A DNA stretch of 64,000 bases from a virus, in IMG/VR virus record IMGVR_UViG_3300045988_130745. The stretch is one strand, 5' to 3'. This document shows positions 13,098 through 30,586 of the stretch, piece after piece (positions within the stretch are counted from its first letter, which is position 1; every line of letters starts with the position of its first letter). The notes beneath the pieces were generated by a model. That model was not told the origin of the DNA. It was given only the letters and a program-made list of their open reading frames with translations, and made no database searches. The translations under genes were made by a program, and so were the position numbers.

Positions 13098-13119
13098 TTA
13101 TATAAAATTCTTAATGTTA

Positions 13120-13150
13120 GTGCTCTCCATATTGGAGGGCACTTTTATTT
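13120..13150 (+). terminator. Rho-independent terminator
   Basis: GTGCTCTCCA/TGGAGGGCAC stem followed by TTTTATTTT. Confidence 0.7.
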
Positions 13151-13182
13151 TAGAACAAAATTTTTTATAGGAGGAAATCGCA

Positions 13183-15540
13183 ATGGATATACTCCTTTTC
13201 GGAACTCTCCGAAAATATATCGACGATACTCTTCAAGGCATGGGTGCGCTCAAAGGCGAAAAAGGCGATCGTGGAGAAAAAGGTGCCCAAGGTCCAAAAG
13301 GCGATAAAGGCGACAAGGGAGACAAAGGCGCACAAGGACTTCGCGGTATTCAAGGCTTAACTGGTGCCACTGGCGCGAAAGGCGAACGTGGCGCTCAAGG
13401 TATCCAAGGTTTAACCGGCCCCCAAGGTATCCCTGGCGTGCAAGGCATCCAAGGTCCAAAAGGCGAGAAAGGTGACAAAGGTGAAACCGGTCCCGTTGGT
13501 AAACGCGGTGTCCCTGGAGTTAATTACAACATTAAATACTTCTTGTCTACTCTTAATGAATTAAATGCCATCACTCCTGTTACCGGTTATGACGAAGCTA
13601 TTTTCGCTTATGTTGCTGAGAATAAATCAATCTATTATTCTTATGAAAGTTCTCCTTGGGCTTTCTTTGCAGATGCGTCTAATCTTTAGTTTGCGCGCGG
13701 AGAGCAAGGTGAGCAAGGTCCTCAAGGTGAGAAAGGTGATAAAGGTGACCAAGGCATTCAAGGCATCCAAGGACCGCAAGGTATCCAAGGGCCTCAAGGT
13801 CTTCAGGGCATCCAAGGAGGTAAAGGAGATAAAGGCGACAAAGGCGACAAAGGCGACCCTCTCACTTGGAATGAAGTTCCAGCAGCTGCGCGCAAAGAAC
13901 TTAAAGGTGAGAAAGGCGACAAAGGCGACACTGGTGATTCTGGTGTTTATTATGGTCCAACTGAGCCAGAAATTGACCAAGAAAAACTCGTTTGGATTGA
14001 TTCATCAGTAGAAGAATCGGCTACCACAATTGATATTGCCAACATTCCTGGACTTCAAAAAGAACTTGATTCTAAAGTTCAACTCCCAGCCAAAATTGAA
14101 AATGATACTCAATTATTTCCCGTTGTAACTTCAAAAGGTACGTCATGGGTCACTCTTGAAGAAACTGTCAACGGAATTGTTAGTGAATGTGTAAATATCA
14201 TCGTGCGTGGCACAGACAATGCGACTCTTAAAGGCACTGAAATTTATCTTCACGATGTAACAACTGACACTATATCTACTTTTGAATGGAATGGAACCAG
14301 TTTGACTATTTATGTTTTAAATGGACACAAATATTTTATCAGTGGCGCTGAAGTTGAAGGATATGAGCCTGCCGCGGATAGTTTACAATATATTGCGCGA
14401 GCTGCATAGACTCGTACAATCACTTTATCTTATCCGCGCTCAGAAGAAGCAGAATATGGCATCCGATTTTTAATTGAATCATCAGATCCATCATGTGAGC
14501 GTGTAGTAGTCAAAAATAATATTACAACTTATGGCGAAGATACGGGTTTGGTGGCTGCTATTGGTACCAAACTCACTATGCCTAAAAACAGTTTTGACGA
14601 CATCTATCCTTGGTCAGATATTCGCATTGTAACTGATTCTGATAATGCTGCCGAGGCTGCGCAAACGATGGTTAAAATTCCAAAATATTATGTCAAGGTC
14701 ACTGTTGATGATACCTATGAAACTTGGATGATTAGTCGTTATAAAAAAGCAGGATACCGTGTCGCAAAAATGTTTGCTCGTCCTGATGGAACCGAAGCAG
14801 ACTATTATGAATATGCCCGTTACGAGACCAGTGACACTAATCGTTCTCAAACTGGCGTCACTCCTCAAAGTTCAACCACTATTGAAGCATTTAGAACTGC
14901 CGCTCTTGGATTAGGTGATAATTGGCATCCAGCTGGACTTGCAGATCGAACTGATGGACTTCAGATGCTAATGACTATTGAATTTGCTACTCGCAACATT
15001 CAGTCAATAGCAGAAGGTTTGGTTAATTCTAAAACCGTTTCTGATTGCGGTTTGACCGATGGTTTAACTATTACCGAAGATTCAAAGGGCATTAAGCCTT
15101 ATTCTGGTATTGTTAAAAATGCTTTTTCTTATCGTGGAATTGAAAACCCTTACGGTAATTTACTTGAATATGCTGATGGTATTATTTTAAACAATTCTCG
15201 TGTGTACTATTGCGACGATTGGACTCGTTGGAGTAATTCAATCAATTCAAGTTACGTTCAAGCCGTTGGTACTATTCCAACTTTAAGCGGATTTATTACT
15301 AAATTGAATTATAATGAAGCTAATCCTTGGATGCGTTTGCCTAGCGAAGTAGTCACTACTGGCGATAGCGATAGTAATTATGGCGACTATTATAATGCTC
15401 CAACCGCAGATTATACCTTGCCAGTTTATGGCGGTGGTTATTCTACCAATTTGCGTGCGGGCTTATTCCACTGGAATTGTACTCGTACTTTTAATGAAAC
15501 AAATAGAGACATTGGTTCTCGTTTGGCTCGTAGTTTTTAA
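13183..15540 (+). CDS. collagen-like tail fibre protein
   Basis: ORFs 13183..13689, 14203..14409 and 14548..15540 share a frame across TAGs 13687 and 14407. Two blocks of Gly-X-Y repeats ([19 protein letters not shown]...). Confidence 0.8.
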
Positions 15541-17913: not shown

Positions 17914-18231
17914 ATGGACATAATTACACTTGCGTTGACTCGTAAGGCAGTTAGAGATGCTCACGTTGACCATATAGGACCACAAGGACCGGTTGGACCG
18001 AAAGGTGAGAAAGGCGATAAAGGTGACCCATTTACTTGGAACGATCTCACTGCGGAGCAAAAGAAAGAATTAACTGGTCCAAAAGGTGATAAAGGCGATA
18101 CAGGTGGAGTTGGCTATGTCTCTTTTGAGAGTGGCAACGATGGACACTTGTACGCCGTTATTGCCGAAGGGACTGATGAAATCAGTTTCAGAATTTCCGA
18201 TGATGGTAAGCTGGAGGTAATCTACGCATGA
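17914..18231 (+). CDS. short collagen-like protein
   Basis: Track ORF containing [17 protein letters not shown] and [11 protein letters not shown] triplets. Confidence 0.7.
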
Positions 18232-20651
18232 GTAAAAGAATAGATTTAGGCGCAGTAACCGCTTACGCCATTGCAGTTAAAAATGGATTTGAAGGCACAG
18301 AAGTAGCCTGGCTTGCAAGTCTTAAAGGTGCAAAGGGCGACAGGGGTGAAAAAGGCGAGCAAGGCGCGCCAGGTATTTAGGGAGAAAGAGGAGCAACTGG
18401 TGAAACTGGCCCTATTGGCCCTCAAGGTATCCAAGGACCAAGAGGTGCTCAAGGTGAGAAAGGAGATACTGGCAATGTCGGCCCAGCTGGTCCTCAAGGA
18501 CTAAAAGGCGAAACTGGTGCAGTTGGACCAGCTGGGCCGCAAGGTAAGCAAGGCATCCAAGGTGAAAAAGGTGAAACTGGTGCTGCAGGCGCCCGAGGTG
18601 AACAAGGTCCGCAAGGTATTCAAGGCATTCAAGGTCCAAAAGGCGAGAAAGGCGATCCTTTCAGTATAAAGAAAATTTATGTTTCTGTTGCTGCAATGAA
18701 TGCTGATTTTGACGGTACTGATACTTCTACTGGTGATTTTGTTCTTATTAACACTGGCAATGTTGCAGATGAAGATAATGCAAAGCTCTATGTAAAAGGC
18801 GAGAGTGCTTTTACTTTTGTCACTGATTTGTCCGGCGCGGCTGGTATACAAGGTCCGCAAGGTCCTCAAGGAGTGCAGGGTGTTCAAGGAGAACAAGGTA
18901 TTCCGGGTGTAAAGGGTGACAAAGGTGATCCAGGCTCTGATGCAACTGTCACTACTGATAATATCACCTCTGCTCTTGGCTATACTCCCGCAGATTCAAC
19001 CAAAGTTTACACTAAAACTGAAGTTGACGGAATGATTGATGGTGTTTATGCTCAAGCCGTTCGCAATGCGACTTCTGTTGCTCAAGTCAACGGCTTGTTC
19101 CAAGAGTGGTGGAAGAAAAATTGGGTTGAAGATACCTCCACCCACACTCAAATGCTTGAGCGTTGGTTTGGAAATGTTCTTACCAGTAGCAAGGTTTATG
19201 GTACCAAGCTACCTTTGTTTGCTACTTCAAATAGTGCAAATGGCGAGTATATTGACGATTCTGTTGGCATGACTTGCACTCCTTCAACTAACGCAGTTCT
19301 TGGTCAAGATGACTTCGCATTCAAGCCAGAGTTCTGGTGCATCGAAGCATCTGGTGAGCATAATTCTGACGGTTCAATTACTATCTATGCTGTTGAATTA
19401 ATTGATGACATTGCTACCGTTCGTTCTGGCGAGCATTTGACTTGGGTTCTTCAAAAGAATACTTATTGGCATGAATATACCAGTGAAGGTTATCATTTCG
19501 TCGAACTCAAATCAACTCCTGATGAAACTTGGCATCGTTGGCCGCAAGGTACATCAAAAGATGGTACAGTTCATGAGTTTATTGCTAACCCGAAGTATTA
19601 TGCCGGAATGAAAGATGGAACTATTACTGTTGGCACTAATCTTCCTGCAATTAATTTTACTTCTCATCAATCTGGCGTTGCTCTATGGCGCAAGCGTGGC
19701 AGTCAATACTCTGGCGCGAGTGGCAACCTTATCAAGTTCCTTGATATTATGATGAAGTTAAAGTATGCTAAGAAAGGTAACTCTGGGACTATTGAAGGTT
19801 GTTCAAACTATAACTGGCAATATACTACTCCTGTTGGCGAGACAGGCGTAGAACGTATTATTGTTACTACCGCGCAGGGTGCAAATATTAAAGTTGGCTC
19901 AACTGTTATTATTGGTAAGAAAGGCGGCTCTACCGATCGTGGCGATAGTGCTATGAGAAGCCTTGTTTCAATGAAGAAAGTCAAAAGTTTGGAGCCAGTC
20001 ACTATTGATGATACTTCTTATACAGCCGTTAATATTGATAATGGCGGAACAACTTTTGATACAGTTGCGAGTGAGACAATGATTTCTTCTATGCCTTATC
20101 ACTCTGGATACAATGACAACGTATTAGGTTATGATGGCAGTGCAACTAATTACACCAATGGTTCTGAACCTGGTTTGCTCCAGAAGATTGAGTTCCAGAA
20201 TGGTGCTTATCTGATTATTTCAGATGAATTGTGGCAATGGAGCAAAGATGATACAAACTATATGTTTGATTGCTATACTTGCCATGATTAGTCAAAAGTT
20301 ACTACTAATGGAACAATTTCTTCTGACTATACAAAGCAAGCTGATTTGACTTTGAAGTGGGCAGTTGAGGGTGCTAATACAAGTTGGCACTGGGAATATA
20401 TTGAAGATACTGCAATCGCTAATGATCCAGCAGTTTGCTGGCCAGCTAAAGTATCCACGACAGCTGGTAGCGGAACTGGTTGTAAAGCTGGCTTCGGCGT
20501 CGCTTTGGCGTCGTCTGGTGTGCGTGCTGGTTGGTGTTTCTGCGGTTTGTGGGGTGGCGGTCTTTGTGGTGTTTCAGCTCGTAACTCGGACGTTTCTCCT
20601 TCGTATTCTGGCTGGTACGGGGCGCTCGGCGGTCCAGGTCTTGCGGGGTGA
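18228..20651 (+). CDS. DGR target: collagen-like tail fibre with C-terminal variable domain
   Basis: ATG 18228 is in frame with ORFs 18696..20291 and 20346..20651 across TAGs 18378 and 20289. Gly-X-Y repeats near the N-terminus. The last ~50 codons are the VR ([33 protein letters not shown]...). Confidence 0.85.
20489..20635 (+). repeat. DGR variable repeat (VR)
   Basis: 147 bp alignable without gaps to 20992-21138 (offset 503). 19 mismatches, every one at a TR adenine. Confidence 0.9.
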
Positions 20652-20690
20652 ATCGAAGCCTAGGAGCACGAAGTGCGGATAGGCAAGAGA

Positions 20691-20706
20691 GGGGACGCAA
20701 GTCCCC
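20691..20706 (+). promoter_or_regulatory. GC hairpin downstream of VR (candidate DGR target-recognition element)
   Basis: GGGGAC-GCAA-GTCCCC: 6-bp GC stem with a GNRA-type loop, 40 nt after the target stop. Confidence 0.5.
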
Positions 20707-20991
20707 GTTATAATGGAAACGACCCATCCGTGCGATACGCCCGACTGTTGACTCGATCTCAATTGAATGCAGCAATAGCATGATTTAATTGAACCATTAA
20801 CTTTCAAGTCTTGTTTCATACGAAACCGAGATAGATTCAATGACTTTACCGCCATTCAAGAATCTATATAACCTAGAATAAAATTCCAAGGATACGATTC
20901 AAAGTTTAGGGAAGGATTTCTCTACTACAAAATCCTCCATTCAGTTCTTTCGGCGCTTAACGAAAGTAGGGACGTATTCCGTTGGCAGATT

Positions 20992-21138
20992 TGGCTTCAA
21001 CGTCAATTTGGCGTCGTCTGGTGTGCGTGCTGGTTGGTGTTTCTACAATTTGTAGAATGGCGGTAATTGTGGTGTTTCAGCTCGTAACTCGAACAATTCT
21101 CCTTCGAATTCTAACTGGAACGGGGCGCTCGGCGGTCC
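20992..21138 (+). repeat. DGR template repeat (TR)
   Basis: Invariant copy with 25 adenines, 19 of them substituted in VR. AAC/AAT codons are phased with VR codons. Confidence 0.9.
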
Positions 21139-21141
21139 TAG

Positions 21142-21245
21142 CCGGTCTTGCTTGCGGAGCAGTTTTACAACAATAATGCGGATTACGTTCCTAGACTTAT
21201 TTAGTTGAAATTGCTCCTGCGTAGTCAAGACCGGCTTATTTTTTT
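21142..21245 (+). promoter_or_regulatory. extended stem immediately 3' of TR, followed by a T-run
   Basis: CCGGTCTTG (21142-50) pairs with CAAGACCGG (21226-34). GGAGCA (21156-61) pairs with TGCTCC (21212-17). CTTATTTTTTT follows. Confidence 0.5.
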
Positions 21246-21336
21246 ATTCAGAAAAGAATAAGCTTAACCGCGTCTAGTAGCTTCGGCGAAAGTCGCACGG
21301 GGAGACCGGCCAAAGGACTAATAAGGAGGGCTACTT

Positions 21337-22644
21337 ATAAAGACTTTTTGTAAGCCCGCAAATACTAATATATGCGATCCAGAGTTTATTTACTGGGCGG
21401 TTTATGATTGTGTTAAGCATAAACTTTATCGTAATGATTTTCTTGATTTATTATGTACTCAAACAGGTATATCTCGCCGCGTAGTGATAAAGGAGCGTTC
21501 ACAATTAAATGAATCAACTCCTATGATTGACGGCGCAATCAAGAAATTATCTGAAAAATGCGCTCAAATGATTGCTGATAACAAACTTAAATTTAGAGAA
21601 CTTCGTCAATTCAATCGAGTTGATGGTATTTCTGGAAAGAAAAGAGATATTTGTCAAGAATCTCCTCTCCAGCAAGTATTTGAATACATCGCGGTTTACG
21701 CACTTCAACCACTTTTTGATGCTAAAATTTTATATTGCCAATTTGGCAGTATCCCAGGTAAGGGACAAGTCAAGGGCGCGCAAAGAATTTCATATATTCT
21801 CAATAGTCCAAAGTTCAAAGACAAACGAGTGGACTGTATTAAATGTGACGTCCGCAAGGCTTATCCATCAACAAAAGTAAGCACTGTTCATAATCTTATC
21901 ACTAAATATTGCGGTAAGAATAAATAGTTAATTGGTTTAGTTGATGCTATCATGGCAAACTACCCTAATCACCATTTAATTATTGGTGGCTACTTTTCCA
22001 CTTGGACATTTAATTTAGTAATGAGTGAAGTTTTGCGTGAGTTTAATAAACTTTATAAAGAGCGCCGTGGACAGCGAATTAAACTGGTCGAAAAAATTGT
22101 TTGCTATGCAGATGATTTTCTCTTGTTTGGATACAAGTCCAATTTGGAGCGTGCGATTAAGACAGTTGCTAAACGTATTAAAGCACAATTTGGTTTAGAA
22201 ATCAAAAATGTCTGGACGATAATTCAATTCCCATCTAAAGAGGTTGAAAACCATCCTCGCTATAAAAATACTTTTATTGATATGATGGGTTTCAGAATTT
22301 ATCGCCATTACCGTGGCATCCGCAAGAAAATTTTTCGCAGAGCGCGTAGACAATTTATCCGTGCAAATCAACTCTCTTATGTACCTGTTTGGAGAGCGCG
22401 AAAAGTTGCGGCATATAATAGCTGGCTTACATATTCTAAAAGTCGTGGAGTAATCCTCAATTATCATATAAATACCCTAATGAATCGTTCGAAGCAATCC
22501 ATATCTAATCATTCTAGGGAGGAATTGACAAGTTATGAAAGAGACTTATTGCTCTATCCCGAAAGCTGTTTTGACTTTCCCCGTTGGCGGAAAAACCGAC
22601 GTTATTTTGAGGAAAAATATCGAAAAAGTCACCAAACAGGGTAA
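21337..22644 (+). CDS. DGR reverse transcriptase
   Basis: ORFs 21484..21927 and 21952..22644 share a frame across TAG 21925. The frame stays open upstream to TAA 21322, and TAAGGAGGG RBS lies at 21321-30, so the start is uncertain (no ATG; ATA 21337 or GTG 21484). Motifs IPGKGQ and VCYADDFLLFG (YxDD). Confidence 0.8.
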
Positions 22645-22888
22645 TTCGGAAGAAGAAACCTATGATGCTTACGAGTGCGACGAAGTTCAATTCCGTTATG
22701 ATGGCGCGCTGACAGTAGAAGAAGTTGAAAATGATTTTGACTCTTGGTGGAATTATCCAGCCAAGGCTTCTATGACTCTTGACGAGCGTGTCTCCGCACT
22801 TGAAAATTCAAAAGCAGATAAATCAGATGTAGAACAAATTTACGATGCTATTGCTGCAGCCTATCAAGAAGGAGTGCAATCAGTATGA
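22535..22888 (+). CDS. hypothetical acidic protein
   Basis: Track ORF with AGGGAGGA RBS. Overlaps the 3' end of the RT frame by ~110 nt. Confidence 0.6.
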   Translation: MKETYCSIPKAVLTFPVGGKTDVILRKNIEKVTKQGNSEEETYDAYECDEVQFRYDGALTVEEVENDFDSWWNYPAKASMTLDERVSALENSKADKSDVEQIYDAIAAAYQEGVQSV

Positions 22889-24322: not shown

Positions 24323-24772
24323 TTGATTGTTTCTGAGATTGAAATGAATATGAAAGCCGCGCTGAAACAGGATAGAATGGAAGATAAGAATGATTATTCT
24401 TATCTTTTATCTCGCTTTCGCGCGAAAGAAGTTGAGCTTCGCCGTGAATTGACTAATGACGAAGCTATCGACGTTATCCGCAAGGAAGTCAAACAGATGC
24501 AGAAAGATTATGACGCAATGTCTGGCGATTTGCTCAACACTCATTATGCTAAGGGCTTGAAGCGTCAGATTGACCTTTATTCCATCTACTTGCCTAAAAT
24601 GATGTCTTATGATGAGGTTTTGGATTATCTGCGTGGAATGGATGCTGAGTGTATGCTCCCAACTGCTTTTGGCGCAGCGATGAAAGCTGTTCGCGCGGAG
24701 ATTGGCGCAAAAGCAGATGGTAAGACCATCTCTCAGGCGTTGAAAAATTATATGGCTCAGGAGAAAAAGTAA
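24323..24772 (+). CDS. GatB/YqeY-domain protein
   Basis: Track ORF. The pattern KAALKQD...LSRFRAKEVEL..LTNDEAIDVIRKEVKQMQKDYD...IYLPKMMSYDEV matches the YqeY/GatB C-terminal domain layout. Confidence 0.6.
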   Translation: MIVSEIEMNMKAALKQDRMEDKNDYSYLLSRFRAKEVELRRELTNDEAIDVIRKEVKQMQKDYDAMSGDLLNTHYAKGLKRQIDLYSIYLPKMMSYDEVLDYLRGMDAECMLPTAFGAAMKAVRAEIGAKADGKTISQALKNYMAQEKK

Positions 24773-25778: not shown

Positions 25779-25862
25779 GCGACTGTGGCCCAGTGGACAA
25801 AGGCGGGTGCCTGCAAAGCACTTAATTTTTTATCGTTGGTTCAAATCCAACCAGTCGCTCCA
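25779..25862 (+). tRNA. tRNA, anticodon read as GCA (Cys), unusually long variable region
   Basis: Acceptor GCGACTG/CAGTCGC, anticodon arm GGTGC-CTGCAAA-GCACT, T arm GTTGG-TTCAAAT-CCAAC, encoded CCA. 12-13 nt lie between the anticodon and T arms. Confidence 0.6.
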
Positions 25863-25874
25863 AGGAGTTTTGCT

Positions 25875-26651
25875 ATGAAAGATGTAATAGGAATTTATAA
25901 AATCACAAATTAGATTTCTGGGAAAGTCTATATCGGGTAGTCTAGGCATATCCATAAAAGATGGCAGGAACATTGTTAGCCTTCTTCAGATTCAGTTATT
26001 TCAAGAGCTATTAAAAAGTACGGTCAAGAAAATTTTACTTTCGAAATAATTGAAGAATGCCCGTTAGAATCGTTAAATGAGAGAGAAGAATTTTATATTA
26101 AAAAATATAATTCTTGTGTACCTAATGGCTATAATGTTATGTCTTCTTCAAATGGAATCTAGTCTAAATTCTTTCTTTTAGAAGAAAAGCAACTAGATAA
26201 AGTAATTTAGTTTTTACAAGCTGATGATAAAACCTATTCTCAGATTGCTGATTTAACTGGTTTAGATATTTCTACTATTTCAAGAATTAATAATGGCGAA
26301 ATTCATTATAATGAGAATCTTTCTTATCCTATTTCAAAGAGAGATGCTGGTAAATGGTTAAAAGTAAATCATTATTGCATTGATTGCGGTACACCCATTT
26401 GTCGATAGGCGATCCGTTGTAAAAAATGTAATGTTATATTTTTAACTAAAAATAAAATTTCTAGTCCAAGACTTGAATGTCCAGCAAGAGAAATTTTAAA
26501 ACAGGAAGTATTTTCTTTACCTTTAGAAGCGGTTGGAAGAAAATATGGAGTAACTGGTAGTGCAGTTAAAAAATGGTTGGGAAAATATAATTTGCCAACT
26601 CGGAAAAGTGATATTTCATCTTATTCAAAAGAAGAATGGGATAAATTATAA
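25875..26651 (+). CDS. GIY-YIG homing endonuclease (free-standing, in tRNA island)
   Basis: ATG 25875 to TAA 26649-51 with 6 in-frame TAGs, checked codon by codon. GIYKITN(TAG)ISGKVYIG(TAG)S..KRWQEH, C-terminal Cys4 and HTH-like region. Confidence 0.8.
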
Positions 26652-26810
26652 TATGCAGTTAGTGAGTTTGACTCTCACCCGCTGCTCCAGAACGGAGTTC
26701 CCTATTAGATTTCCAATGGGAATTGAGCTTCACGGTTTGATTGAGTTAGTCCGTCGTCCTCAGTATTGAATAGGCAATCAAGAGGAGAAGATACGAAAAT
26801 TCTTCATTAT

Positions 26811-26886
26811 GCGCGAGTAGTCGAACGGCATAGACACTACGCTAAGGACGTAGGATTTGTGGGTTCAAATCCCACCTTGCGCACCA
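26811..26886 (+). tRNA. tRNA, anticodon read as AAG, class I structure
   Basis: 73-nt cloverleaf plus CCA. Perfect anticodon stem CTACG/CGTAG with loop CTAAGGA (A34 A35 G36, G37). T arm GTGGG-TTCAAAT-CCCAC. 5-nt variable loop. Confidence 0.6.
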
Positions 26887-26904
26887 ATAGGAAGGAGAGT
26901 TATT

Positions 26905-27135
26905 ATGGGCAAATTGAAGACGACCAAGATGGTTTATGGTCGAGCAATGGTTGGAACTGATGCTTACAAAAAGAATTTGTCTAGTAAGCGCTCAAGGCGT
27001 AGTGATCAGAAGAGAAAACAAAACTATTGTTCAGCCGCGATTAAAACCAATCTGACTTGGGAACAGAAACTAATTCGATGGTTTGAAAAAATTGAGCGCT
27101 GGTTTTTAGATTATTTTGAAAGGTTTTTTAATTGA
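26905..27135 (+). CDS. small basic hypothetical protein
   Basis: ATG 26905 after AGGAAGGAG, inside track ORF 26857..27135 whose 5' part overlaps the tRNA. Confidence 0.6.
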   Translation: MGKLKTTKMVYGRAMVGTDAYKKNLSSKRSRRSDQKRKQNYCSAAIKTNLTWEQKLIRWFEKIERWFLDYFERFFN

Positions 27136-27425
27136 TGAAAATTTTGACTGCGCCAGTTGTTAGTTATGAAGTTCTTCAAGATGATTTGATTCATGCCAAC
27201 ATTATTAAAAGAGAAGATGTTGATAATGATTATTCATACGTCCTTGGTTTGCTTTTTGCTGATAATTGGAGTTACGATTGCTATTTGAAACTTTATCTAA
27301 ATGGCAAACCCATTCCAGAGAATCTTGATATAAGCGCAACTGCTTATCTGAAGAAGTGCAATGAGATTTATACTTATTTACGCGAGAAGGCTCCGGGTTA
27401 TGATTTTATTTTGATTGAGACTTAA
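27132..27425 (+). CDS. hypothetical protein
   Basis: Track ORF with 4-nt overlap. Confidence 0.6.
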   Translation: MMKILTAPVVSYEVLQDDLIHANIIKREDVDNDYSYVLGLLFADNWSYDCYLKLYLNGKPIPENLDISATAYLKKCNEIYTYLREKAPGYDFILIET

Positions 27426-27451
27426 AATCTATAAAAAAGTGGGATGAAGTA

Positions 27452-27685
27452 ATGGAACAGACTATATTCTATGAGACAGGTTGGTATGAACCTGAGATTT
27501 TGGGGTCTGGCGGTTCCTATACCGGAGTTGCAAAAACGACTTCTGAGGAGGAAGCGTTACAACGGTTGTTGAAATATTCTGCCAATTATGCATATCGTAT
27601 TACTGTATATAAAAAAGATGGCAAAATCATAAAGCGGGAAATTGCCGAGTATGATCAATGGGAAAAGAGATGGAGAGCAACCTGA
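27452..27685 (+). CDS. hypothetical protein
   Basis: Track ORF. Confidence 0.6.
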   Translation: MEQTIFYETGWYEPEILGSGGSYTGVAKTTSEEEALQRLLKYSANYAYRITVYKKDGKIIKREIAEYDQWEKRWRAT

Positions 27686-27785
27686 TGAAGTAGAAATTTA
27701 TACTGAGTAACGGAGCAATCCATAGAAATTAAAAGTCTTGAAATTTATAATCACTTGTGCGAGAAGGCTTAAAGAAAGGATTAAA

Positions 27786-28196
27786 ATGAGTAAGAGGAAA
27801 AAGAATACTCCTGTAAGTGATTGGGTTTATGATGATTTGATGAATTATTTTGAGTTCTGTTTTGGTGGCGCTCATGTATTTCGTTCAAATAAAGCGAAGA
27901 AGTATCTTTTTGAAATTCTTACTCACGATTCTAACTGGACTGTTGAAAATGTGCATAATGAATATTATGTTCTTTATCATAATCCAGTTTATCAACCTCG
28001 CGCGAAGATTCATGTTCAAGCAAAAGATACCAATTTGATTTGGCTTTTGTGGATTGCATATACGCATGATTTCTACAAGTATAACAAACTTCCTTTTGAA
28101 AAAGGAAAAGGCAAAGATTATTGGCGTTTCGTTGAAGATTTTAAACACTATCTTACTTATAAAGGTCTTCATTGGACAGAAGATGATTTTCAATGA
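27786..28196 (+). CDS. hypothetical protein
   Basis: ATG 27786 (MSKRKKNTP) after AAAGGA, inside track ORF 27738..28196. Confidence 0.6.
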   Translation: MSKRKKNTPVSDWVYDDLMNYFEFCFGGAHVFRSNKAKKYLFEILTHDSNWTVENVHNEYYVLYHNPVYQPRAKIHVQAKDTNLIWLLWIAYTHDFYKYNKLPFEKGKGKDYWRFVEDFKHYLTYKGLHWTEDDFQ

Positions 28197-28197
28197 T

Positions 28198-28226
28198 TTG
28201 ACTTTTGATAGATAATATGCTATAAT
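28198..28226 (+). promoter_or_regulatory. conserved promoter module P5
   Basis: TTGACT 28198-203, 17 nt, TGC TATAAT 28221-26, then ATTTATAGAAAAT. No ORF follows before P6. Confidence 0.7.
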
Positions 28227-28384
28227 ATTTATAGAAAATGAGATTCATTCGTAGATAAGAATTAAAAATCGCTAAAGACAATAATGTTGCTCTAATGTGG
28301 GAACGTGAAGGCTACGACATATCCGATACTGTTAAACGAAATCCCTATGAGCTTGCGTGAGATTGAAACTGCTCACCGAATGAA

Positions 28385-28413
28385 TTGACTTTTTATGATT
28401 TCTATGATATAAT
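28385..28413 (+). promoter_or_regulatory. conserved promoter module P6
   Basis: TTGACT 28385-90, 17 nt, TGA TATAAT 28408-13, then ATATATAGAAAAT. Leads to tRNA-Asn. Confidence 0.7.
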
Positions 28414-28598
28414 ATATATAGAAAATGAAAGACAGAAGCAGCAAAATACTTACAATCAGAACTTAAAATTCTAATATTGGTAAGAAGCTGTCTTGATATG
28501 GGATGAAATGAGATTCTAAGACGATTTCTGCAAAACTTTTGATGTTTTAACAATATGGATGATAAAACAAAATGAAAAATCGTCTTGATTTTTATTAT

Positions 28599-28673
28599 GG
28601 ATGGTTCGTACAACGGCTAGTACAAGAGACTGTTAATCTCCTAATGGGGTTTCGACTACCTCACCGTCCGCCA
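28599..28673 (+). tRNA. tRNA-Asn (GUU)
   Basis: Acceptor GGATGGT/ACCGTCC, D arm GTAC-AACGGCTA-GTAC, anticodon loop CTGTTAA, T arm GGGGT-TTCGACT-ACCTC, encoded CCA. Confidence 0.8.
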
Positions 28674-28796
28674 AGAGCGTTGATGGGACGCTTCTTAATA
28701 TCCCATTGCCAATAGGGGAGCATTAACGACGGTTAATGAGATTAAGGTGCCTCCACACCGGCCTTATATTTTATTTATTCTGGAGGAGAATAAATT

Positions 28797-29543
28797 ATGC
28801 ATAATCCTATTTGTGGTATTTATAAAATTACTAATTTGATTAATGGAAAATGTTACATCGGTTAGAGTGTGAATATCAAACAAAGATGGAGAGATCATCG
28901 TTCAAGGGCCATATCCAAAGGTTCAGAAGGGTTTGAGAGTTATTTTTATCGTTCTATTAGAAAATATGGACTAGAGAATTTTTCTTTTGAAATCTTGGAA
29001 GAATGTCCTAAAGAATAGTTAAATGAAAAAGAGCAATTTTATATTGCAAAGTATCATTCAAATCAAGAAAGTTTTGGTTACAATTTAACTGAAGGCGGCG
29101 ATTCTGTAGGAGGAAAAGCAAAGAAACTTTCTGATAAAGAGTTGCAAAGCATAATTTATGATTTGAAGAATACGTTGTTATCATAGGCTGAAATTGGGTA
29201 GAAATACCATATTGCTTAGACTACAGTTAGTGGTATTAATCGAGGAGAATTTCGTTATTAGGACAATGAAATTTATCCATTAAGGACAAGAAATGTTTTA
29301 AAAGAACGTGGTTTTGTTGATGGCTATAAGACTTGCCCAATTTGCGGAAAGAAATTTCAAGGCAAAGCTAAAACTTGTTCGATTGAATGTGGTAAAATTC
29401 GTGTAAGAAAAATAAAAGTAATTCCTAAACGAAGTGCTTTAAAATATCTAATTCGTAATTATTCATTTGAATGGATTGGTCATCAATTCGGAGTAAGTAG
29501 TAACACAATAAAGAAATATTGTGATAAAGCTAATTTACCTTGA
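28797..29543 (+). CDS. GIY-YIG homing endonuclease, paralog of 25875..26651, ends at an in-frame TGA
   Basis: ATG 28797 (RBS GGAGGAG). GIYKITNLINGKCYIG(TAG)S..QRWRDH. 6 in-frame TAGs. TGA at 29541-43, but the same frame continues with conserved ...SYSDGEWEKV to TAA 29592-94. Confidence 0.75.
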
Positions 29544-29622
29544 ACAAAGACTTTAATCAATTCTTATTCAGATGGAGAATGGGAAAAGGTTTAAAATTCT
29601 GCCAGGTAACTGGCATTTATAT

Positions 29623-29698
29623 GCGCGTGTAGTTTAATGGTAAAATCGCGGACTTTTAATCCGTCAGACTGGAAGTTCAAGTCTTCTCACGCGCACCA
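29623..29698 (+). tRNA. tRNA-Lys (UUU)
   Basis: Acceptor GCGCGTG/CACGCGC, anticodon arm GCGGA-CTTTTAA-TCCGT, T arm GGAAG-TTCAAGT-CTTCT, encoded CCA. Confidence 0.85.
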
Positions 29699-29759
29699 TT
29701 AGCTCGTCTACCATGCGTAGAAAGAGTTTTTGAAACCGTTTGCGCGGTTTCTGTTTTAT

Positions 29760-29843
29760 CCCTCATTAGACCATAAGGATTGGGGTGGGTCTGTAAAACC
29801 CATGCGTTTCGCCGGGATGGTTCGATACCATCATGAGGGACCA
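29760..29843 (+). tRNA. tRNA-Tyr (GUA), class II
   Basis: Acceptor CCCTCAT/ATGAGGG, anticodon arm TGGGT-CTGTAAA-ACCCA, long variable arm, T arm GATGG-TTCGATA-CCATC, encoded CCA. Confidence 0.75.
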
Positions 29844-29866
29844 CTTATTTTAAGAAAGGATATATT

Positions 29867-30151
29867 ATGGACTTTTTTGTTGGGAATTTTACTGACTGGT
29901 TCAATAGTTATGCTAAGGATAAGTTGTTTCGTCTTTGGTATAAAGAGGACGAAAAACTTGGTCTGGATGATGGCTATGATGGAGTTTGTCAGTATGTTTA
30001 TCTGAGACAGGCAATCAATCTTGGTAACGATTGGTTGATTGGTTATGCTGTATTTGATGAACGCGAAAAGGATAATATGTATCCTAGTTTGAACTGGGTT
30101 AAGTTGAGTGAAATTGATTTAGCTTGGTACAAAGGTGACGAGGAAAAGTAA
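29867..30151 (+). CDS. hypothetical protein
   Basis: Track ORF between two tRNAs with a GAAAGGA RBS. Confidence 0.6.
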   Translation: MDFFVGNFTDWFNSYAKDKLFRLWYKEDEKLGLDDGYDGVCQYVYLRQAINLGNDWLIGYAVFDEREKDNMYPSLNWVKLSEIDLAWYKGDEEK

Positions 30152-30165
30152 TTTCCTCATTTTAT

Positions 30166-30241
30166 GGCTCTGTAGTTCAGTGGCTAGAACAGCGGACTGT
30201 CTCTCCGAAGGTCGGGAGTTCGAATCTCCCCAGAGTCGCCA
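30166..30241 (+). tRNA. tRNA-Asp (GUC)-like
   Basis: Acceptor GGCTCTG/CAGAGTC, D arm GTTC-AGTGGCTA-GAAC, anticodon loop CTGTCTC (pyrimidine at position 37), T arm GGGAG-TTCGAAT-CTCCC, CCA. Confidence 0.7.
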
Positions 30242-30511
30242 ATGTAGTTCGGAAGGACTACGAGCCTTGCGCCTAGGAGATAAGGCGTCAAACTCGCGAG
30301 GTTTGGACCTAGATAAGTCGTTAAAAACTGTCCAGTCAACACCGCTAAGACTAGTAAATTTGCGGAGACCGAGATAGGATGGATTCGAGGTAAACTACCA
30401 CCGGCGCTTAGCGATATGTGGCTTAGTCATTTGGAATCGGTCTATAAAACAAAGAAAACGAAAGTAACCTCCAATGGACGTGAGGGATAGTCTGAAAACT
30501 CCCTCTTATAT

Positions 30512-30586
30512 GTGCGAGTGGTATAACGGCAATTATTCCTGCCCTCCAAGCAGGTGACGAGGGTTCGACTCCCTTTTCGCACACCA
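30512..30586 (+). tRNA. tRNA-Gly (UCC)-like
   Basis: Acceptor GTGCGAG/TTCGCAC, perfect anticodon stem CCTGC/GCAGG with loop CCTCCAA (C at position 33), T arm GAGGG-TTCGACT-CCCTT, CCA. Confidence 0.7.

Follow-up and report, generated by a model that had tools for sequence, protein, structure and literature searches.

We describe here a diversity-generating retroelement (DGR) on a 64,000-nucleotide (nt) stretch of viral DNA, the IMG/VR record IMGVR_UViG_3300045988_130745 (henceforth the window). Its components are encoded on the plus strand in the following order: a target gene for a collagen-like tail fibre, which ends in a variable repeat (VR); 356 nt without an open reading frame (ORF); a non-coding template repeat (TR); a spacer of 198 nt; and a gene for a reverse transcriptase (RT).

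Of the last 54 sense codons of the target gene, 49 lie in the VR (20489-20635), which aligns over 147 nt to the TR (20992-21138). An exact pairwise alignment reproduces the picture given in the original prediction for this locus, in which the VR was said to form the last ~50 codons of an 807-codon fibre gene: the pair is free of gaps and has 19 mismatches, all of which fall on the 25 adenines of the TR, with the other six adenines unchanged and no mismatch at any other base. The hypergeometric chance of such a placement of 19 out of 19 mismatches on 25 adenines among 147 positions is 4.8e-19. The adenines lie mostly in AAC and AAT codons phased with those of the VR, as had also been stated: 22 of the 25 are in 11 AAY codons (Y being C or T), and the other three in TAC, TAG and TCA. 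The similarity between VR and TR ends sharply at both flanks. At the 3' side the two repeats have in common a 17-nt GC-rich element, GGGGCGCTCGGCGGTCC (20619-20635), an identical copy of which closes the TR at 21122-21138 and right after which the flanks diverge; by its likeness to the boundary of the DGR of the Bordetella phage BPP-1 it would act as an initiation of mutagenic homing (IMH) element. No further TR-like copy is present elsewhere in the 64-kb window.

The target gene (18228-20651) has 807 codons, a TGA stop and two in-frame TAGs, at 18378-18380 and 20289-20291. The N-terminal third of its product is collagen-like, with Gly-X-Y runs at 18327-18659 and 18834-18941 (Pfam Collagen, 1.6e-21), and it is this part that many tail-fibre PHROGs match; both the collagen-like nature and the two TAGs had been predicted correctly. 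The C-terminal ~530 residues correspond to PHROG 17147 (residues 275-797, 1.9e-87), have homologues in the targets throughout the RT family described below, and belong to a domain family of 650 clusters at 50% identity: this conserved part is the putative receptor-binding region. Another fibre gene of the collagen-like type (13114-15540) has three in-frame TAGs, and its C-terminus resembles a classic DGR-type lectin tail. As a second DGR target it was rejected: beyond the collagen repeats it bears no relation to the target, and its surroundings are devoid of TR-like sequence.

The variable domain has no Pfam domain. A search of the PDB with a profile of the target returns no match, and against Mtd, the receptor-binding target of the BPP-1 DGR, hhalign gives a probability of 0.06%, with no sequence similarity detected. 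Modelling with AlphaFold2 was done on a homologue 78% identical to the target rather than on the window protein: a first model, from 37 sequences, was poor (predicted local distance difference test, pLDDT, of 63) and its Foldseek matches were meaningless; a second, from 138 sequences, reached a pLDDT of 90.6. The DGR variable protein that ranks best for the latter is TaqVP (E 2.8; template modelling, TM, score 0.27). Predicted viral structures are matched at an E-value of about 3e-4, with TM scores of 0.47/0.58; several crAss-like tail fibres are among them, and one of these structures was named by its depositor after Treponema TvpA, a protein of the C-type lectin fold. On this model, the variable domain may well be a C-type lectin-like fold that has diverged strongly, or else have a scaffold of another kind.

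The RT gene (21337-22644; 435 codons) begins 198 nt past the end of the TR, and has an in-frame TAG at 21925-21927 (glutamine), the motif 4 sequence IGGYFSTW at 21982-22005 and the catalytic box YADD at 22105-22116, in agreement with the predicted TAG-containing YADD RT some 200 nt downstream. The protein matches Pfam RVT_1 (5.5e-9) and PHROG 1423, a phage RT family (5e-36). While a single-sequence phmmer search of the PDB yielded nothing useful, a family profile built from 20 members finds the RT of the Bordetella phage (bRT; PDB 8ub7) with an E-value of 1.3e-28, the next best matches being group II or 'retron-type' RTs at 5e-13; the hhalign comparison of the family with bRT has a probability of 99.6% over 274 columns. 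At the positions aligned with Arg74 and Ile181 of bRT, arginine and isoleucine are conserved in the family; in the papers of Handa et al. these two residues reportedly shape adenine mutagenesis. An A-specific TR/VR pair is found in 64 of the 83 loci of the RT family, with the layout target, VR, TR and RT, and with no gene for the accessory protein Avd. These comparisons support a grouping of the RT with those of DGRs, as had been predicted, rather than with RTs of the group II or retron type.

The frame of the RT probably starts at an ATA. In the window and in all six of the close strains first collected (L001 and L003-L007), ATA is found at this place, 7 nt past a Shine-Dalgarno sequence AAGGAGG (21323-21329 in the window). 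The RTs of recoded relatives start with TTG or ATG.

Variation among natural genomes

We compared 18 near-identical phage genomes from public metagenomes: the window; one contig of 176.5 kb from the European Nucleotide Archive (ENA); five IMG/VR contigs, of which four are of 175-179 kb and one is a 7.9-kb fragment; and 11 other metagenome contigs, which were recovered via anchors flanking the VR, with the VR itself left unconstrained. ENA and IMG/VR already contained genomes of the same phage, and the gene calls of some of them extend across TAG codons. A nucleotide search of GenBank phages (INPHARED) gives only short matches to the collagen repeats, so the phage has no close cultured relative there. 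The one genome that was compared region-wide with the window (L001) is about 92% identical to it overall.

The 18 genomes have 16 distinct VR alleles, and each of the 25 A-templated VR columns is variable. If every VR is compared with its own TR, 274 of the 283 mismatches are at TR adenines. The strain comparison bears out a hypervariability confined to the A-templated positions, as the original prediction expected. The TR itself is nearly invariant: 12 of the other 17 genomes have it exactly as in the window. Where it has changed (L001/L007, L090, L092 and L094), the non-adenine substitutions recur in the cognate VR, and wherever a substitution created a new adenine that site is mutagenised in the VR. 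Between the window and L001 there are 5-17 differences per 100 nt in the fibre gene, with 14 in the VR bin, and only 0-6 in the VR-TR gap, the TR and the spacer. This pattern is the signature of a transfer from TR to VR that is adenine-mutagenic, runs one way and is still going on. Because the VR alleles are many, the A-templated columns vary and the substitutions of the TR are copied to the VR, the DGR is active now and is not a relic.

Reading of TAG and rival explanations

Comparison with homologues and between strains indicates that TAG encodes glutamine in this phage (genetic code 15). The TAG at 20289 of the fibre gene occurs in 'CHD*SK', where standard-code homologues have an invariant 'CxDQSK'; the one at 18378 occupies the Y position of G-I-*-G in a collagen run whose commonest Y residue is glutamine. 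The TAG of the RT aligns with CAG in L001 and with glutamine in P0001. In recoded relatives TAG stands at the glutamines of 'ELWQW' and 'CxDQSK', and at nine glutamine positions of a single RT (that of L086). Between strains, TAG is exchanged with CAG at six and with CAA at five of the 13 variable sites. As the target gene and the RT gene both have in-frame TAGs, their full-length products would be made only during amber read-through.

The fibre gene has from two to eight TAGs among strains that are ~92% identical (the window, L001 and L003-L006), mostly through changes of CAA or CAG to TAG, so the amber codon content turns over fast. Over the window, in-frame TAGs are dense in the structural and tail block at 600-22644, with up to six per gene, and nearly absent from ~43.5-60 kb; this distribution agrees with published models that place most of the recoding in late genes. 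A pipeline that uses the standard code was predicted to miss both partners of the DGR: the target would indeed be fragmented by it, but the element as such need not be missed, because the detection of TR and VR is based on nucleotides and a 230-residue fragment of the RT keeps motifs 4-7.

We have high confidence that the locus is an active, Avd-less DGR of an uncultivated phage of ~176-180 kb which decodes TAG as glutamine. Several observations weigh against this reading. Motif 4 of the RT is GGYFST and not the GxxxSQ usual in DGR RTs, and a myDGR-type [LIV]GxxxSQ signature is absent; the SQ position has ST in the window and SC, SA or PA in relatives. The usual form is not universal, since the Epsilon crAss-like DGR RTs have GxxxSP (PMC12386605). 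No ATG, GTG or TTG is present where the RT homologues start (MKTYCKP), ATA being only a presumed start, which implies either rare initiation at ATA or a very low expression of the RT. Nine of the 283 mismatches in the strain comparison are at non-A positions. Avd was not found by Pfam in any ORF at 13.1-25.7 kb (within about 6 kb), nor did phmmer find a match for BPP-1 Avd in the six-frame translation of the window (best E 0.84): the DGR had been called complete, which holds for target, VR, TR and RT but not for Avd. A search of the PDB with the confident model of the variable domain gives no significant match, and a C-type lectin fold is not assignable to this domain from solved structures. 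Finally, none of the 15 tRNAs of the window has a CTA anticodon, with about 110 kb of the genome lying outside the window; in one survey only 13% of the TAG-recoded gut phage genomes had such a tRNA (PMC9610469).

Some of these features, along with others, could be accommodated by different explanations. The YADD box is common among group II and retron RTs, and the sole NCBIfam match of the RT is the group II RT/maturase model TIGR04416, as might be expected of an RT of the group II intron, retron or defence type that merely neighbours an unrelated duplication differing at adenines by accident. The NCBIfam match, however, has a score of 31.7 bits, with the cut-off set at 300; at gathering thresholds Rfam detects only tRNAs in the window, and neither a group II intron nor a retron RNA; and the best solved relative is the DGR enzyme bRT, by 15 orders of magnitude in E-value. 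With the A-specific TR/VR pairs that lie beside the RT across most of the family, and a chance of 5e-19 for the adenine-only pattern, we give this explanation practically no credence. A relic, in which TR, VR and RT are left over from a once-active element and the fibre is no longer diversified, would be in keeping with the missing Avd, with the non-canonical start and the in-frame TAG of the RT gene, and with a motif 4 devoid of the usual SQ. It is largely refuted by the comparison of otherwise very close genomes, whose VR alleles differ over all the A-templated columns and to whose VRs recent TR substitutions have been passed; furthermore, the frame of the RT is intact in all strains and conserved family-wide, and the TR and the spacer are better conserved than the neighbouring genes. 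We therefore hold a relic to be very improbable.

The remaining alternative concerns the code. If the TAGs were true stops, the fibre and RT genes would be split or pseudogenised, a TAG in the repeats would yield truncated, non-functional fibres, and the amber codon of the TR would be a liability; the lack of a CTA-anticodon suppressor tRNA in the window agrees with this, as do several other ORFs of the window for which TAG seems to be the stop when the standard code is applied. Yet the TAGs occupy invariant glutamine positions of standard-code homologues, swap with CAA or CAG at 11 of 13 sites between strains, and lie in frames that are open and conserved across them, while the amber codon of the TR is kept in lineages with an RT identity of only about 55% and the VR holds a TAG in 7 of the 18 natural genomes. 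That these codons terminate translation accordingly seems to us a most unlikely proposition, and the active, Avd-less DGR of a phage that decodes TAG as glutamine is the reading we retain.

The 15 tRNAs lie in two clusters, at 25779-30586 and 42279-43467, and the sequences inspected encode the CCA end. One tRNA (43391-43467) is aberrant: ARAGORN gives its anticodon as 'cc', its anticodon stem is largely unpaired, its loop has CCTAA and its Rfam score as a tRNA is 49 bits. It could be a tRNA-Arg(CCT) with a bulge or something unusual, and is not clearly an amber suppressor. Two other products may bear on the making of Gln-tRNA for the decoding of TAG: a YqeY/GatB-like protein (24323-24772; Pfam 1.1e-13; 'tRNA amidotransferase' by PHROG annotation) and an RtcB tRNA ligase (44144-45406; PHROG 1.5e-134). 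GIY-YIG homing-endonuclease-like genes are located among the tRNA genes (28797-29543) and at the end of ORF 600-1670 (about 1400-1670); Pfam GIY-YIG is on record for their counterparts in L001 (L001 18356-20864), and the copy at 28797 of the window has six in-frame TAGs.

Flanking elements and related systems

Two hairpins past the stop of the target (20658-20706) lie 23-71 nt beyond the end of the VR: hairpin 1 at 20658-20684 and hairpin 2, GGGGAC-GCAA-GTCCCC, at 20691-20706. They are preceded by a conserved motif, GGGGTGAAT (20645-20653). The module made up of this motif, a hairpin and GAGGGGC-loop-GCCCC is kept 3' of the VR across the RT family, and its stems show compensatory changes. The ensuing gap between VR and TR, 356 nt in the window, measures about 100 nt in most relatives and 209-293 nt in four; a promoter scan between VR and TR found none that was convincing.

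The spacer between TR and RT (21139-21336), presumably the 3' part of the DGR RNA, is predicted to be structured, with a minimum free energy of -80.4 kcal/mol (z = -4.3 versus shuffles). Two motifs, CTAGTA(G/C)C and GGnGAAAG, are found in the spacers family-wide; the conserved motif CTAGTAGC lies at 21274-21281 in the window. The consensus structure of the family has six pairs with compensatory changes, several of them in internal hairpins, and a helix that links the 3' end of the TR to the stretch just upstream of the RT. The flank of the TR, AGCCGGTCTTG (21140-21150), has two alternative partners, 21226-21236 or 21302-21311. In standard-code relatives, CTGGT can likewise pair with either of two ACCAG sequences, a hint that an element of alternative pairing may be conserved in the DGR RNA.

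Next to the RT, and overlapping its 3' end by 110 nt, is a small acidic ORF (22535-22888, plus strand; 117 residues, isoelectric point (pI) 4.3). It is the next gene after the RT in all the family loci examined and has an N-terminal motif 'TDVILRKNI...CDEVQ...FDxWW'. It matches no Pfam or PHROG family; in GenBank phages there is one weak match, after a 26%-identical RT in MT836575.1. The product may be an accessory factor, possibly the 'CH1' of Avd-less DGRs, or simply belong to the tail module. CH1 is small, with a pI of about 4.7 and 160-169 residues, and occurs only in DGRs without avd (PMC5758913). Compared with this description alone, the ORF is alike in being a small, acidic, motif-less protein beside the cassette (pI 4.1-4.3 in the family) and unlike in size, with 117 residues in the window and 125, 126 and 232 residues, counted from ATG, in three family homologues.

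The well-studied DGR of BPP-1 (mtd-avd-TR-brt) has much in common with this locus: a phage receptor-binding target with the VR at its extreme 3' end, a TR between target and RT, adenine-only differences, a GC-rich 3' boundary in both VR and TR, a GC hairpin (GCGGGGCC-GAAA-GGCCCCGC) 4 nt past its VR, a structured spacer between TR and RT, and a homologous RT. It differs in several respects. The RT described here is about 110 residues longer, with YADD in place of YMDD and GGYFST in place of GSLTSQ in motif 4; the target has collagen-like repeats and no detectable similarity to Mtd; and BPP-1 is a 42-kb temperate podovirus, unlike the ~176-kb TAG-recoded phage with an amber codon in its TR. Avd is essential in BPP-1 and absent here, and the mechanism must therefore differ in that respect. 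DGRs without Avd are a recognised class, in which the 'architecture A1' of Wu et al. (2018; PMC5758913) resembles the locus in its order target-VR-TR-RT and in having no avd, HRDC or MSL gene; 26% of the catalogued DGRs lack avd and about 74% have it (PMC5758913).

The context of the DGR was put forward as new in the original prediction, and this part of it does not stand: DGRs are common among gut phages, those with recoded RTs and recoded tail targets are already published from TAG-recoded gut phages (Lou et al., bioRxiv 10.1101/2023.08.07.552389), and Zeta crAss-like phages have DGRs with a TAG-containing RT and a recoded tail-protein target (PMC12386605). The DGRs of these two reports share with the present one code 15, a TAG in the RT, an adjacent recoded tail target, a VR near the 3' end of that target and a VR that varies between samples. 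They are found in ~100-kb Bacteroides or crAss-like phages, have RTs of other lineages (GxxxSQ) and in some cases have Avd, unlike the present phage of ~176-180 kb, which has a collagen-like fibre and in a close relative of which there are matches to a T4-like baseplate (Gp10_C).

The nearest standard-code systems are IMG/VR loci (L008-L082) on contigs of 30-60 kb, which come from gut metagenomes as far as their sources are named. Their RTs are 42-45% identical to that of the window, and the C-terminal ~530 residues of the target are homologous; also shared are the layout, the hairpins past the VR, the motifs of the spacer and the acidic ORF that follows the RT. They differ in that the loci examined have no in-frame TAG, consistent with the standard code; in their shorter VR-TR gap; in their targets, which have 560-590 residues and lack the N-terminal extension; and in the start of the RT which, where read, is mostly ATG, with GTG or TTG in a few.

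On the BPP-1 paradigm, the element would act as follows. An RNA would be made that spans the invariant TR and the structured spacer; the RT would copy this RNA from the 3' side of the TR, faithfully at C, G and U, and with any base placed opposite adenine; the cDNA would then replace the VR at the 3' end of the fibre gene, with the shared GC-rich element as its 3' limit, and the two conserved hairpins downstream probably mark the target, as does the cruciform of BPP-1. Up to 13 codons of the receptor-binding tip (11 AAY, one TAC and one TAG) would thereby be re-randomised, giving about 1.4e14 protein variants, the presumed purpose of which would be to track changes in the host receptor. The order of events, the priming and the biological purpose, like the functions ascribed to the GC-rich element, hairpins and spacer, are proposed here by analogy with BPP-1. 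The anatomy of the repeats, the A-specific differences, the flow from TR to VR in nature, the family of the RT and the reading of TAG as glutamine are results of the comparisons given above.

The amber codon of the template

The system is of a well-known type, and the one unusual detail of the locus is the in-frame TAG in its template. It lies at 21053-21055 of the TR, in phase with the reading frame of the VR, and templates the VR codon at 20550-20552, which is TGG (tryptophan) in the window. Across the 18 genomes this VR codon is TGG in seven, TAG in seven and TCG in four: these are three of the four outcomes of a mutation of the middle A. The same TAG is found in the TRs of two recoded relatives (L084 and L085) with RTs about 55% identical, and is therefore old and stable. 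The standard-code members of the family have AAY at this position ('NLNNGGN' compared with 'NL*NGGN'), and their TRs are all free of in-frame stops.

On the accepted view, templates use AAY codons because these give access to a wide range of chemistry with no stop codon within reach (PMC7826257). In this phage TAG is a sense codon, and the TR can therefore hold it in frame. Adenine mutagenesis of the TAG codon would give glutamine, serine, tryptophan or leucine, with no risk of a stop; tryptophan and glutamine are unreachable from AAY codons. No description of a TAG codon inside a TR or VR is found in the accessible parts of Lou et al. (bioRxiv 10.1101/2023.08.07.552389) and PMC12386605. Provided that TAG is glutamine, we lean slightly towards regarding the conserved amber codon of the TR in the recoded clade as the first documented relaxation, by the genetic code, of the rule that DGR templates avoid stops, through which the diversification of the fibre, by way of the RT, the target and some VR alleles, would be tied to the state of amber suppression. 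A prediction follows that the DGR templates of code-15 phages may employ TAG as a codon for diversification; if so, such targets would be wrongly taken for truncated genes by pipelines that find DGRs and translate VRs with the standard code.

This locus leaves the basic understanding of DGRs unchanged. It is, however, a clean natural demonstration of an active DGR, in which public genomes alone reveal both the faithful copying of the template and the mutagenesis of new adenines. It also shows that a cassette of RT, TR and receptor-binding domain, common in phage contigs of 30-60 kb, occurs in an amber-recoded phage of 176 kb as well, there joined to a collagen-like shaft. With its longer RT, conserved spacer RNA and conserved acidic neighbour, the RT family offers a tractable case for how Avd-less DGRs work.

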